64,000 nt of DNA, taken from Reclinomonas americana ATCC 50394. Taxonomy: Eukaryota. Of the stretch, positions 16,220 to 31,236 are shown one piece after another. The DNA is taken from NCBI GenBank assembly GCA_048213135.1, contig PS015113.1, positions 1 to 64,000 of the forward strand, given 5' to 3'. Made by a program: the position numbers and the translations under genes. Under the pieces are notes generated by a model. That model was given only the letters and a program-made list of their open reading frames with translations. It ran no database searches and was not told the origin of the DNA. The first letter of the stretch is position 1. Each line of letters starts with the position of its first letter.

Positions 16220-19200
16220 CTAGCCTGCACCGATGATCGCACACGTCAGTGATGCTAACAATCTGAGGAGACAAGCTTGTTGAATGCATACCTTGCTGTG
16301 ATGCCATTCGATCGAGCAGCTCCGCCACGTCGTACTTATTCGCGGTACGAGCCACCTGAGCCGCCGTCTTGCCATCTCTGTTGACCCTGGGAATCAGAAG
16401 CGGATACGCAGTTGCCAGGAGTCGCACAATCAACTCGCGGCCTTTCCCAGCAGCATGATGCAGCACGGTGTATCCAGGCAGTCGTGCTCGGTCGCTCGAT
16501 ACGGCAAGTACCATCGCCGGTGGACATCGTTGCTCGTCGGCGAGAAGCCACTCCACCACTGCCAACTGACCGCCGTTGGCAGCATACATGAGTGGCGTCC
16601 AGCCGTAGTCATTGACAGAATGAGCAAGTCGAGCGCCGACGCCACTCTCCTCCCACAAATACTCCAGCACGGCAAGGTGGCCATAGATAGCAGCACAAGC
16701 GAACGGCGAGTTCCCGTAAACGTCTCGCTCTCCATCGTCCAAGAGCGTTTCTGCACCTTCGATCGCCACCAACTGGCGCAGTGCTTCCACATCACCAACG
16801 TCAGCCATCAGCCATGCCTTTTTCCGCCTGTATTAGTCACCGCGTAAGCGAGCAAGCACAAGCTTGCTGTTCAACACGACAGACAGATAGTAACCTGCAG
16901 TGAGGTGGCTGCGATGCCAGGCGATCCAGCACCACGGCCACAGTGTTCTTGCCGTTGGAGAGAGCCACTTGTGCGGCTGTCTTGCCATCCTTGTTGATCT
17001 TTGGAACGAGATCTGGGTACGCAGTCGCCAGGAGTCGCACAATCAACTCGCGGCCTTTCTCAGCAGCATAATGCAGCGCGGTGGATCCAGGGAGTCGAGC
17101 TCGATCATTTGTCGCAGCAAGCACCATTTCCCTTGGGCATCGTTGCTCGTCGGCGAGAAGCCACTCCACCACTGCCAAGTGACCGCCGTTGGCAGCATAC
17201 ATGAGTGGTGTCCAGCCATAATCATTGACCGACTGAGTAAGTCGAGCGCCGACGCCACTCTCCTCCCACAAATACTCCAGCACGGCAAGGTGGCCATGGA
17301 TAGCAGCAAAGGCGAACGGCAAGTTCCCGTAAACGTCTCGCTCTCCATCGTCCAAGAGCGTTTCTGCACCCTCGTCGGCCATCACCTGTCGCAATGCTTC
17401 CACATCACCAACGTCAGCCATCAGCCATGCCTTTTTCCGCCTGTATTAGTCACCGAGTAAGCGAGCAAGCACAAGCTTGCTGTTCAACACGACAGACAGA
17501 TAGTAACCTGCAGTGAGGTGGCTGCGATGCCAGGCGATCCAGCACCACGGCCACAGTGTTCTTGCCGTTGGAGTGAGCCAGTTGCGCGGCGGTCTTGCCA
17601 TTATTGTTGATCTTTGGAACGAGATCTGGGTACGCAGTCGCCAGGAGTCGCACAATCAACTCGCGGCCTTTCTCAGCAGCATAATGCAGCGCGGTGGATC
17701 CAGGGAGTCGAGCTCGATCATTTGTCGCAGCAAGCACCATTTCCCTTGGGCATCGTTGCTCGTCGGCGAGAAGCCACTCCACCACTGCCAAGTGACCGCC
17801 GTTGGCAGCATACATGAGTGGTGTCCAGCCATAATCATTGACCGACTGAGTAAGTCGAGCGCCGACGCCACTCTCCTCCCACAAATACTCCAGCACAGCG
17901 AGGTGGCCTCCCAAAGCAGCACACTGAAATGGCGAGTTCCCATAAGAGTCTCGCTCTTCCTCATCCAACAGCGTCTCCGCACCCTCGTCGGCCATCACCT
18001 GTCGCAATGCTTCCACGTCGCCATCCTGTGCCATCAACCATGCCTTCCTCCGCCTGCATTAGTCACCGCATAAGCGAGAAAACAGAAGCTGTAAGGCAGC
18101 AAAACAGAGAGATGCATACCTACAGTGTGGCGGCTGCGACGCAAGGCGATGCAGCACCACGGCCACAGTGTTCTTGCCGTTGGAGTGAGCCAGTTGCGCG
18201 GCGGTCTTGCCATTATTGTTGATCTTTGGAACGAGATCTGGGTACGCAGTCGCCAGGAGTTGCACGATCGCGATGGACTGGTGGCATTTCACAGCAGCAT
18301 AATGCAGCGCGGTGGATCCAGGGAGTCGTGCTCGGTCATTCGTTACAGCAAGCACCATTTCCCTTGGACATCGTTGCTCGTCGGCGAGAAGCCACTCCAT
18401 CACTGCCAAGTGACCGCCGTTGGTAGCATGCATGAGTGGCGTCCAGCCGTAGTCATTGACAGAATGAGCAAGTCGAGCGCCGACGCCACTCTCCTCCCAC
18501 AAATACTCCAGCACGGCAAGGTGGCCTCGCAGAGCAGCACAAAGAAACGGCGAGTTCCCGTAAACGTCTCGCTCTCCGTCATCCAACAGTGTCTCAGCGC
18601 CCTCGTCGGCCATCACCTGTCGCAATGCTTCCACGTCGCCATCCTGTGCCATCAACCATGCCTTCCTCCGCCTGCATTAGTCGCCGCATAAGCGAGAAAA
18701 CAGAAGCTGTAAGGCAGCAAAACAGAGAGATGCATACCTACAGTGTGGCGGCTGCGACGCAAGGCGATGCAGCAGCTCTGCAACGGTGTACTTGCCGTCG
18801 GAGAGAGTCAGTTGCACGGCGGTCTTGCCATTCTTGTCGACCATTGGAACGAGATCTGGATAGGCAGCGACCAGGAGTTGCAAAATTAACTCGCGGCCTT
18901 GCCCAGCAGCACAATGCAGCGCGGTGGAGCCGGGAAGCCGAAAATGCGATCGGTGATTTGTTGCAGCGAGCACCATTTCCCTTGGGCATCGCTGCTCGTC
19001 GGCGAGAAGCCACTCCACCACTGCCAAGTGACCGCCGTCGGCAGCATACATGAGTGGCGTCCAGCCGTAGTCATTGACAGAATGAGCAAGTCGAGCGCCG
19101 ACGCCACTCTCCTCCCACAGGTACTGCAGGACGGCAAGGTGGCCTCGCTGAGCAGCACAGCCGAACGGCGAGTCTCCATAGACGTCTCGCTCTCCCTCAT

Positions 19201-19969
19201 CCAAGAGCGTCTCTGCGCCCTCGCTCGCCACCAACTGTCGCAGTGCATCCGCATCGCCATCATCTGCCATCAACCACGCCTTCTTCCTCCTATGCCGATC
19301 ACCGAGTAAGCGAGGGAACCAAGGTAGTAGACGGACAGACAGACAGACAGAGAGGTTGAAACCTGTTATGCGGCGGCTGTGAAGCAACTCGATCGAGTTC
19401 ATCCACCACGGAGAACATGTCTCCATCGAGAGCCACTTGGGCGGCTGTCTTGCCGTCCTTGTTGACCTTGAGAAGGAGTTCCGGATACACAGTGATCAGC
19501 AGTTGCACAATTGACTCGTGGCCTCCCTCGGCAGCGTAATGCAGTGCAGTGGAACCAGGTATTAGCGAGTCGTCATTCGTTACAGCAAGCACCATCCCCC
19601 GCGTGCATCGTCGCTCATCGGCCAGAAGCCACTCCACCACTGCCAAGTGACCGCTACTTGCGGCCACCATGAGCGGTGTCGCGCCTTTGGAATCGACAAG
19701 CTGTGCGAGTTGAGCGCCGACGCCACTCTCCTCCCACAAGTACTCCAAGACGGCCAAGTGACCTCGCTCAGCAGTACAATGAAACGCAGTCTTGCCGTCC
19801 ACATCCACCTCCTCCCTTGCCAGCAGCGCGCGAGAACCCTCTCTGGCAACCTCTCGGCACAGCGCATCCACATCGCCATCCGCGGCCATCTGCCACGCTC
19901 TCCTCCTCCTGGACAAGTCGCTTGAGTGACGACGACTCGTCACCAGTCGCTCACGCTCACTCACCTCAT
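16220..19969 (-). CDS. Ankyrin-only protein built from 6 tandem ~182-aa exon modules
   Basis: Micro-exon ATGAG|GTGAGT at 19969-19965. Modules are joined by ~65-nt phase-2 introns (e.g. CACTGTAG|GTATGC..CTAATGCAG|GCGGAGGAAG = PPHC-R-RRKAWLMA). The last intron leads to GC-TAG at 16224-16220. Confidence 0.8.
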
Positions 19970-30400: not shown

Positions 30401-31236
30401 TAAGTGACCTCGCTCAGCAGCACACTGAAACGGCGAGCGTCCATAAACGTCTCGCTCTCTCTCATCCAGCAGCGCCTCTGCACCCTCGTCCACCACCAAT
30501 CGGCGCAGCGCTTCCACATCACAGTCCGCTGCCATCAACCAAGCCTTCTTCCGCCTGTGTAAGCCACCGTGTGAGTGGTGAGCAGCCATGTAAGGAGGTG
30601 GAGTCTAGACTAGTACTGAAGCATACCGGTGGTGCGGCGGTTGCGACGCGAGTCGGTCCAGCAACTTGGCCACGTCTTCTTCACCAGAATTAACAGCAAC
30701 TTGGGCGGCTGTCTTTCCATCCTTGTTCACCTTTCGAACGAGATCCGGATGGGCAGCGATCAGTATTCGGACAATCGACTCGTGGCCTTGCTCAGCGGCA
30801 TAGTGCAGTGCAGTCGAACCAGCCAGCCGTGCTCGCTCACTTGTAACAGCAAGCACCATTTCCCGTGGACATCGTCGCTCATCGGCTAAAAGCCACTTCA
30901 CCACAGCCAGGTGACCGCCGTTGGCAGCATCCATGAGTGGCGTCCCGCTGTAGTTACTGACCACCAGGGCAAGTTGAGGACCGACGCCACTCCCCTCCCA
31001 CAGGTACTCCAAGACGGTAAGGTGGCCTTGCCAAGCAGCACAATGAAATGCAGATTGGCCGCCTTCAGCCATCTCCTCCTTTGTCAGCAGTGTTGCTGCG
31101 CCGTCACTGGCCACCAGTGCCCGCAGCGCATCCACGTCTCCATCCTCGGCCATCTCCCATGCTTTTTTCCGCGCACTAACAGAATATGTGAGTGAACACA
31201 CTCGCACAAACACACAGCCACACGCACTCGCCTCAT
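21491..31236 (-). CDS. Giant ankyrin (at least 11 exon modules) - coiled coil - HEPN (DZIP3-like) - TKL-type kinase protein
   Basis: Start micro-exon 31236-31232; ankyrin exons 31175 to 24218 joined by phase-2 introns; then exons 24156-24074, 24008-23686 (coiled coil), 23629-23474, 23413-23134 (MDVSLLTTLLLEI), 23068- (DAVDRMRNARNRVSH). Kinase exons carry IGVGQNTCRVY, VAYK, HPHIVKL, HRDLKPQN, DFG, GTPAFAAPE, DVFSFG, CW..DRPSM; stop at 21491. Confidence 0.75.

Follow-up and report, generated by a model that had tools for sequence, protein, structure and literature searches.

Tandem DARPin-like ankyrin module exons in Reclinomonas americana with variation concentrated at predicted binding-face positions

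A fixed scaffold carrying a variable binding face is the basis of several non-antibody recognition systems, and designed ankyrin repeat proteins (DARPins) copy the idea in the laboratory. The locus described here lies in a 64,000-nt stretch of Reclinomonas americana ATCC 50394 (assembly GCA_048213135.1, contig PS015113.1, positions 1-64,000; the window) and consists of two arrays of ankyrin modules, A and B. The reading preferred here, held with moderate confidence, is that the arrays belong to two paralogous genes, A and B, with DARPin-like module exons that were duplicated and recombine with one another, and that their binding faces have diverged, probably towards different ligands or epitopes.

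In each DARPin repeat six positions of the concave face are randomised, according to the excerpted text of PMC3602593, whose residue numbers fit repeat positions 2, 3, 5, 13 and 14. A related ankyrin library randomised positions 2, 3, 5, 10 and 13 in its own numbering, according to the excerpted text of PMC4308713. The modules belong to the same size class as DARPins and share their layout of an N-cap, three internal repeats and a C-cap, and module positions 13/14, 3 and 5 align with DARPin randomised positions. The full randomised list of Binz et al. 2003 is reportedly 2, 3, 5, 13, 14 and 33. DARPins are designed, whereas the modules are natural and only 27-35% identical to them. Furthermore, the modules carry loop insertions of 4 residues in repeat 1 and 10 residues in repeat 2, and they are concatenated 6 or at least 11 times per predicted protein. 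Finally, in comparison with the DARPin set, the modules vary at positions 9/10 and in the caps but conserve positions 2 and 33.

Fungal NLR proteins also have ankyrin, TPR and WD repeats in which recombination reshuffles a conserved scaffold whose concave-face residues are hypervariable (PMC4986451). In those domains, as here, near-identical tandem units are shuffled by recombination. The fungal unit is a single 33-residue repeat; the present locus is set apart by a unit that is a whole capped, five-repeat, DARPin-sized domain in its own frame-neutral exon, in at least 17 copies. The modules are 66-84% identical in protein sequence to module B05, below the internal protein identity of more than 85% used for the fungal repeats (PMC4986451). 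In further contrast to the fungal repeats, synonymous divergence is old (mean dS 0.66) and homogenisation weak. Pfam matches in the modules and eight downstream frames, the region upstream of exon B01 being left out, include neither NACHT nor NB-ARC.

Two systems that join ankyrin repeats to HEPN domains complete the comparison. For the DZIP3/hRUL138-like HEPN family of animals and their unicellular relatives, the excerpted Table 1 of PMC3710099 records ankyrin-repeat fusions and lineage-specific expansions. RNase L unites an ankyrin sensor region, a kinase-fold domain and a HEPN-superfamily domain in one protein, as is predicted here for gene B. RNase L has nine ankyrin repeats; gene B would have about 55, in 11 capped modules.

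Ankyrin modules as predicted exons of two genes

The sequence-only reading had counted 17 ankyrin modules, and a tblastn search of the 64-kb window with one module as query returned exactly that number and none further, all on the minus strand. Their tblastn extents are 16296-19907 for array A (6 copies) and 24258-31171 for array B (11 copies). Runs of N, microsatellites and short GT-AG introns mark the window as eukaryotic. That reading had overlooked that the modules are exons of multi-exon genes. Because donors and acceptors are conserved, exon lengths are divisible by 3, spacers break the frame and introns have diverged, the modules are read as same-phase exons of two paralogous minus-strand genes and not as back-to-back open frames. 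All 12 complete internal exons free of undetermined bases (N) measure 543, 546 or 552 nt, typically 546 nt, each divisible by 3, and internal exons begin and end in codon phase 2. Exon B09 likewise measures 546 nt, divisible by 3, with its run of 20 N set aside; hidden sequence under this run was considered and rejected, since the flanks abut in frame to give a 546-nt exon.

The spacers have the form of introns throughout. All 14 that were measured run from GT to AG over 58-76 nt with a CTRAY-like branch site just 5' of a YAG acceptor, and the donor at module ends is conserved, reading ..CA(C/T)NNNAG up to the exon border and GT beyond it. Spacer length is divisible by 3 in only 4 of the 14, and retention of any one of them breaks the frame, 10 through an in-frame stop and 4 through a length not divisible by 3. 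Intron identity is mostly 54-77% against 68-95% for exons, introns beside recent duplicates excepted. The predicted spliced junction reads ..LASQPPHx-R-RKKAWLMA.., which would place a short basic linker between modules.

The same arrangement might be produced by separate small genes of ~190 residues each, lying head-to-tail and transcribed polycistronically or out of tiny spacers, instead of the exons of a giant gene. An in-frame ATG does stand near the start of every module (..W-L-M-A..), and most modules hit a stop within the spacer. In addition, the sole close database relative, P0001 (154 aa, 69% identity, derived from an expressed sequence tag), begins at the homologous methionine. P0001, however, resembles first exon B01, with which it has the ..K(R/T)EEM.. 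motif in common and where a start codon is expected anyway. In 14 of 14 spacers the GT stands at a fixed position and is accompanied by a branch-like CTRAY and a YAG acceptor, and module lengths are kept modulo 3 where spacer lengths are not. Moreover, the R-K-K-A-W-L stretch before the ATG varies at third codon positions (GCT/GCA/GCG) in a coding-like manner. Separate genes are judged very unlikely, and the modules are treated below as exons.

The fold of the encoded modules is that of ankyrin proteins. Pfam Ank_2 matches the three modules tested with E = 2e-22, 4.9e-21 and 2.7e-23, all above the gathering score. An AlphaFold2 model of B05, built from an alignment of 15 window modules and 16 database proteins, has a mean predicted local distance difference test score of 93.1 and contains five helix pairs. 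In the PDB it best matches N3C DARPins of 156-162 residues (TM-score 0.70-0.74 by query and ~0.80 by target); 500 of 500 counted Foldseek matches have E <= 0.001, with every match listed an ankyrin protein. Since the best structural matches are N3C DARPins, each exon is predicted to encode a self-contained capped five-repeat ankyrin domain with an N-cap, three internal repeats and a C-cap, as in those proteins. A HMMER alignment of B05 with the DARPin chain 6mol_A spans module residues 31-180 over the three repeats and the C-cap. It sets the register used below, in which alignment columns 38, 75 and 120 are position 4 (Gly) and columns 47/48, 84/85 and 129/130 are positions 13/14.

The 10-residue loop insertion of repeat 2 is conserved in every module (columns 98-117, ..RCPxEMVLAVTNDRA..; B05 ~28363-28416) and carries a short helix in the model. 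It is presumably reminiscent of the extended loop of LoopDARPins.

Variation across the module faces

Variation was assessed in an alignment of 17 module rows and 181 codon columns, with B06 cut by a gap and B09 containing its 20 N. The binding-face class was defined a priori as positions 2, 3, 5, 13, 14 and 33 in each of the three repeats, 18 columns in all, and was fixed before rates were examined. Mean entropy is 1.32 bits in these DARPin-type columns and 0.65 bits in the other 163 (Mann-Whitney p=0.0008), and the set holds 6 of the 18 most variable columns (hypergeometric p=0.0037). Framework positions average 0.27 bits. The control consists of 15 exposed positions on the convex face (18, 21, 25, 26 and 29), whose mean of 0.56 bits lies well below the concave value (p=0.005). 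Because this exposed control is far less variable than the concave set, the variation is face-specific and not general to exposed residues.

The sequence-only reading had described just such a concentration at binding-face positions over a near-invariant scaffold, and its particulars survive closer inspection. Per column, at least 14 of the 17 modules are identical in LEYLWEESGVG (columns 54-64) and at least 15 of 17 in GHLAVVEWLLAD (columns 86-97) and, the wildcard column excepted, in PGSTALH.AA (columns 119-128). The residue pairs that it had listed before GH are exact, with 12 distinct pairs in repeat 1 (ER, QR, LR, LG, IH, IY, WQ, RR, SE, LS, SD and WR) and 9 in repeat 2 (NG, DG, SS, CD, GG, GD, YG, NC and SG). 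Its equation of these pairs with randomised DARPin positions agrees with the 6mol_A alignment, which puts them at positions 13/14. The variation it had noted in hairpin residues is found, for instance, in repeat 2 at the codons of columns 74 (position 3) and 76 (position 5).

The variable set does not coincide with that of DARPins. Repeats 1 and 2 vary strongly, repeat 3 does so at position 14 alone and is otherwise weakly variable, and positions 2 and 33 are mostly conserved, so that confinement to positions 2, 3, 5, 13, 14 and 33 fails. High-entropy columns outside the set include position 9 of repeat 1 (column 43) and position 10 of repeat 2 (column 81), together with C-cap columns 164-173, N-cap columns 9 and 22, and loop columns 69 and 113. 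The columns that vary in the inner helix follow one another at intervals of 3 or 4 residues in all repeats, the last of them at the C-terminus of helix 1 as delimited by DSSP on the model, and this pattern fits one helix face.

Recombination and tests of selection

Recombination among the modules is pervasive. A GARD-like search with iqtree (HKY+G, corrected Akaike information criterion) placed breakpoints at columns 16, 64, 129 and 158 and lowered the criterion from 9837 to 9262. The segment trees conflict; A06 and B11, the terminal exons, for instance cluster in the last two segments and in no other. The modules are old and homogenisation is weak, as their synonymous divergence is old: mean pairwise dS across modules is 0.66, with a non-synonymous to synonymous rate ratio (dN/dS) of 0.27-0.37. 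Nucleotide identity exceeds 90% in only a few pairs, B07/B09, A03/A04 and A04/A05, of which B07/B09 is the youngest duplicate (95% identical).

Several introns are nearly the same in sequence: those following B02 and B04 (29933-30008 and 28709-28784 for the B02/B04 pair, 97% identical), B07/B09 (26636-26693 and 25398-25455, 100%), A02/A03 (18672-18737 and 18054-18119, 98%) and A04/A05 (17441-17507 and 16828-16894, 99%). From this near-identity it follows that the exchanged units take in introns and portions of both neighbouring exons. The pattern indicates that units out of register with the exons were recently duplicated or converted, in array B with a period of two modules. The arrays themselves appear to stem from a segmental duplication, since a copy of the tail of a CotH-like gene lies beside each: the original 3' end at 15500-16038 on the plus strand (Pfam CotH, 1.3e-5) beside array A, and a duplicated fragment beside gene B. 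Between array A and the CotH copy, 20188-20576 holds a gap of 118 N (20250-20367) along with an (AG)31 repeat and a (CTT)n tract of ~68 copies.

A pseudogenised array, or an artefact of collapsed repeats, could also display variation of no functional meaning. Of the N gaps, two interrupt array B and a third falls between A and B; the window as a whole is a gapped draft scaffold with 19 N runs (e.g. 7514-7664, 8056-8335 and 39704-40021), six of them exactly 20 N. In addition, array A seems truncated after A06. Against decay or misassembly, all 15 modules free of N, whether from the 359-N gap or the run in B09, keep open frames, and GT and AG ends are kept in 14 of 14 measured introns. The mean dS of 0.66 with dN/dS of 0.27-0.37 argues for long-term purifying selection in both arrays, and the pooled ratio of non-synonymous to synonymous differences (pN/pS) in the rest of the module is 0.37 in A and 0.33 in B. 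A decaying or misassembled repeat is hardly credible on this evidence, and functional modules under constraint are assumed in what follows.

The codon models locate this constraint in the scaffold. Model M0 gives an omega of 0.385, and under M2a ~70% of codons have omega ~0.16-0.18, so purifying selection acts on the scaffold; in the site test it is significant at 52 codons. With five segments, the log likelihoods of M1a and M2a are -4326.12 and -4311.38, a likelihood-ratio test statistic (LRT) of 29.5 with omega2 3.35 at 4.8% of sites. The M2a posterior exceeds 0.5 at eight columns (32, 47, 48, 74, 81, 84, 113 and 130), of which five are DARPin positions (47, 48, 74, 84 and 130; Fisher p=0.00026), and it reaches 0.99 at column 47 and 0.98 at column 48. 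In the site test, column 48 has a non-synonymous rate beta of 3.62 and a synonymous rate alpha of 0.28 (p=0.007), and the non-synonymous rate across the module peaks at column 113 in the repeat-2 loop (beta 5.4, alpha 0, p=0.0004). Independently of any tree, pN/pS is 0.67 for the concave set, 0.41 for exposed convex positions and 0.16 for the framework. Non-synonymous change at a handful of binding-face codons thus runs at or above the neutral rate while the scaffold is strongly constrained.

Whether selection for new specificities is needed to explain this is less clear, as relaxed constraint could produce a similar picture. Hairpin and inner-helix positions would then vary as the least constrained, recombination and rate heterogeneity would mimic omega above 1, and the modules would be structurally constrained spacers or generic interaction domains without adaptive diversification of specificity. 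This account is possible, though less likely than the preferred reading. The positions that vary here are also the ones that ankyrin repeats in general conserve least. The authors of the ankyrin library, in the excerpted text of PMC4308713, picked randomised positions partly for their high natural entropy.

Several results weigh on the side of relaxed constraint and against positive selection. The codon models were fitted with a likelihood program written for this analysis (Goldman-Yang type, F3x4), not with HyPhy or PAML, and used a fixed nucleotide tree, one scale per segment and naive posteriors. The LRT depends on segmentation: one tree gives 31.3, 9 segments give 11.3 and 15 segments 3.8 (p=0.15). 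Three synonymous-rate classes improve the null by 29 log units, and with synonymous-rate variation the LRT is 5.7 (p=0.057), with omega2 5.9 on 1.7% of sites. When M1a data were simulated on 15-segment mosaics and analysed by the 5-segment pipeline, 5 of 19 replicates passed the nominal 5% threshold, which shows the M2a test to be inflated by hidden recombination. The site test finds beta above alpha at p<0.05 in only 4 of 181 codons (columns 48, 81, 113 and 130), three columns of the DARPin set (71, 74 and 118) come out as purifying, and site-specific synonymous rates are also high at columns 47, 74 and 84. The tree-free pN/pS of the a-priori class, at 0.67 against 0.33 for the rest, stays below 1 and drops to 0.57 in seven independent close pairs; positions 13/14 alone reach 1.14, with a column-bootstrap interval of 0.69-2.03 that is compatible with neutrality. 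Between the recent duplicates B07 and B09 no residue differs in the position-13/14 columns of the first two repeats. Finally, the concave-face mapping derives from the alignment to a DARPin and the helix limits of the model, not from measured 3-D clustering.

Relaxed constraint does not account for everything. Exposed convex positions would be expected to be equally free, yet they are far more conserved than the concave set (0.56 versus 1.32 bits). The freedom is selective and not general, since conservation extends to positions 2 and 33 and to most of repeat 3. None of the 19 null simulations reaches the observed 29.5, their maximum being 17.1, and at seven codons (columns 47, 48, 74, 81, 84, 113 and 130) the non-synonymous rate is 2-5x the mean synonymous rate. 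These results suggest, without demonstrating it, positive selection at binding-face codons. The diversifying selection on ligand specificity proposed in the sequence-only reading thus stands as to the place of the variation, at the binding face, and is equivocal as to positive selection, the LRT going from 29.5 to 5.7. The recombination-aware site analysis proposed with it does return a class with dN/dS above 1, but one that is not robust to synonymous-rate variation or to 15 segments. More generally, site-model verdicts on tandem paralogues shift strongly with recombination and synonymous-rate variation.

The preferred reading of diverged binding faces can be put as a sequence of steps. The arrays would have grown by tandem duplication, and segments would still be exchanged through unequal crossing-over or gene conversion, often in units made of an exon end, an intron and the start of the next exon. 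Purifying selection holds the fold-determining residues and the convex face, while divergence at the hairpin tips (positions 3 and 5) and on one inner-helix face (9/10 and 13/14) has reached or passed the synonymous rate, so that each module would present a different concave surface. Modules would then bind different ligands or different epitopes. In this sequence the variation is presumed to alter ligand specificity, and selection, not relaxed constraint, is presumed to have driven it.

Gene B beyond the array and the surroundings of the locus

Array B can probably be joined by splicing to three further parts, a coiled coil followed by a weak HEPN-like domain and then a protein kinase, and such a fusion would supply it with an output part. 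The joining from B11 to the kinase uses predicted GT-AG sites at most junctions, the one into the first kinase exon excepted. Coiled-coil-type Pfam matches to the coiled-coil frame are sub-threshold only. The HEPN-like region is a lead only. Its frame 22838-23125 contains RNRVSH, an instance of R-x4-6-H, the HEPN catalytic motif as defined in the excerpted text of PMC3710099. The HEPN_DZIP3 match of this second exon, searched as a contiguous frame, is below threshold (E=0.056, 13.7 bits versus a cut-off of 27). An Atlas feature search with the same frame gave 0.95, with 209 of 256 features common with clusters that partly carry HEPN_DZIP3, and frame 23074-23427 gave no usable Atlas match and no Pfam match. 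The kinase is clearer, with Pfam matches on three open frames (Pkinase 9.4e-12 and 7.7e-8, PK_Tyr_Ser-Thr 6.5e-6). A search for longer relatives with a 77-residue kinase exon found no match at E <= 1e-5. The coordinates of all features are collected in Table 1.

Table 1. Positions in the window of the module exons, variable codons and associated features
Feature	Position	Strand	Basis or remark
Array B, 11 ankyrin modules, one exon each	24218..31171	-	pattern scans for exon starts and donors, tblastn, Pfam Ank_2
Exon B01	30627-31171	-	probable start codon at 31153; 5' boundary provisional
Exon B02	30009-30554	-	
Exon B03	29390-29932	-	
Exon B04	28785-29330	-	
Exon B05	28163-28708	-	
Exon B06	27688-28102	-	interrupted by 359-N gap
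Exon B07	26694-27239	-	
Exon B08	26090-26635	-	
Exon B09	25456-26021	-	contains 20 N
Exon B10	24852-25397	-	
Exon B11	24218-24789	-	
359-N scaffold gap within array B	27329..27687	.	end of B06 (~100 nt) hidden, possibly one further module too
31-nt exon tail beyond the 359-N gap	27298-27328	.	
Run of 20 N within exon B09	25956..25975	.	
Array A, 6 modules, one exon each	16292..19908	-	pattern scans for exon starts and donors, tblastn
Exon A01	19363-19908	-	
Exon A02	18738-19289	-	
Exon A03	18120-18671	-	
Exon A04	17508-18053	-	
Exon A05	16895-17440	-	
Exon A06	16292-16827	-	
Repeat-1 position 13/14 codons, B05 (columns 47, 48)	28564..28569	-	most variable pair: 7 and 8 residues among 17 modules
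Repeat-2 hairpin and inner-helix variable codons, B05	28453..28488	-	columns 74 (position 3), 76 (5), 81 (10), 84/85 (13/14)
Repeat-3 position 14 codon, B05 (column 130)	28324..28326	-	the only strongly variable binding-face codon of repeat 3
Putative continuation of gene B: two short predicted introns, linker exon, coiled-coil exon (open frame 23664-24008)	23664..24217	-	GT-AG frame joining
HEPN-like region, two open frames, predicted 65-nt intron	22838..23427	-	R-x4-H motif RNRVSH
Predicted protein-kinase exons	21492..22653	-	HRDLKPQ, DFG and APE motifs in translations; stop near 21492
Duplicated CotH-like 3' fragment	20593..21090	+	Pfam CotH 1.1e-3; translation near-identical to the original; beside gene B

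Set beside the DZIP3-like HEPN proteins, the locus shares the RNRVSH-bearing frame with its weak HEPN_DZIP3 match, while the linkage of this region to the ankyrin array is through predicted splice sites only. Here the HEPN-like region is followed by a kinase, a domain absent from the fusions given for the family in the excerpted table of PMC3710099. The comparison with RNase L shows further differences. The HEPN domain of RNase L is of the KEN type, which the excerpted text of PMC3710099 classes as HEPN, where the match here is weak and DZIP3-like. The order differs as well, with the HEPN-like region before the kinase and not after it; a KEN domain of the RNase L or Ire1 type C-terminal to the kinase was not found, as the kinase frames reach a stop near 21492 with no further domain. 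RNase L has a pseudokinase, whereas the kinase here keeps the HRD, DFG and APE motifs.

Array A seems to be without the coiled-coil, HEPN-like and kinase part, because past A06 (16077-16292) both nearby acceptors run into a stop within two codons, as read by eye. Its modules are under purifying selection all the same, as the rest-of-module pN/pS given above (0.37) indicates. On the other side of the locus, 31299-33635 on the plus strand holds a zinc-type alcohol dehydrogenase/oxidoreductase gene divergent from gene B, with intron-like C/T-rich low-complexity stretches (ADH_N_2 8.7e-10; ADH_zinc_N_2 1.5e-5, just under the gathering score).

A search for relatives of the module among proteins of near module length found one specific relative, P0001 (69% identity), the others being generic ankyrin proteins at <=39%. 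Among longer proteins (318-2000 aa) only generic ankyrin proteins were found, with best-alignment identity <=46%; the predicted giant protein exceeds this length range. A profile of 15 modules, with B06 and B09 left out, had 112,469 matches at E <= 0.001 among 1.84 billion representatives. Giant generic ankyrin proteins dominate these, and P0278, the whole-profile match inspected, is one such generic protein. P0001 may thus be the only specific relative of a rare module type; the evidence for rarity is weak because the searches either stopped at 2000 residues or were flooded with generic ankyrin proteins. P0001 matches the first-exon type of B01, and its record is probably truncated by a sequencing error, since its C-terminal 20-odd residues resemble a +2 frameshifted reading of the ..VNKDGKTAA.. 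region.

A bolder and improbable reading would make gene B of this unicellular eukaryote a sensor of the innate-immune type, with at least 11 DARPin-like recognition modules that each have a binding surface of their own and that a coiled coil links to a HEPN-type ribonuclease and an active kinase, and would give it an RNase-L-like logic with a diversifiable recognition array. Because internal exons have the same codon phase at both ends, any subset of modules could be skipped without a break in the frame, and alternative splicing could yield a combinatorial receptor repertoire from one gene. New sets of modules would keep arising through unequal crossing-over, and array A, lacking the output part, would serve as a decoy or regulator.

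The preferred reading, of two paralogous genes whose modules have diverged at their binding faces, asks for less. If relaxed constraint is all that lies behind the variation, this is an expanded ankyrin gene of an ordinary kind. If different modules have different targets, the locus would be a natural multi-specific binder, and it may offer a simple model for how a protist builds recognition repertoires through exon duplication and gene conversion.

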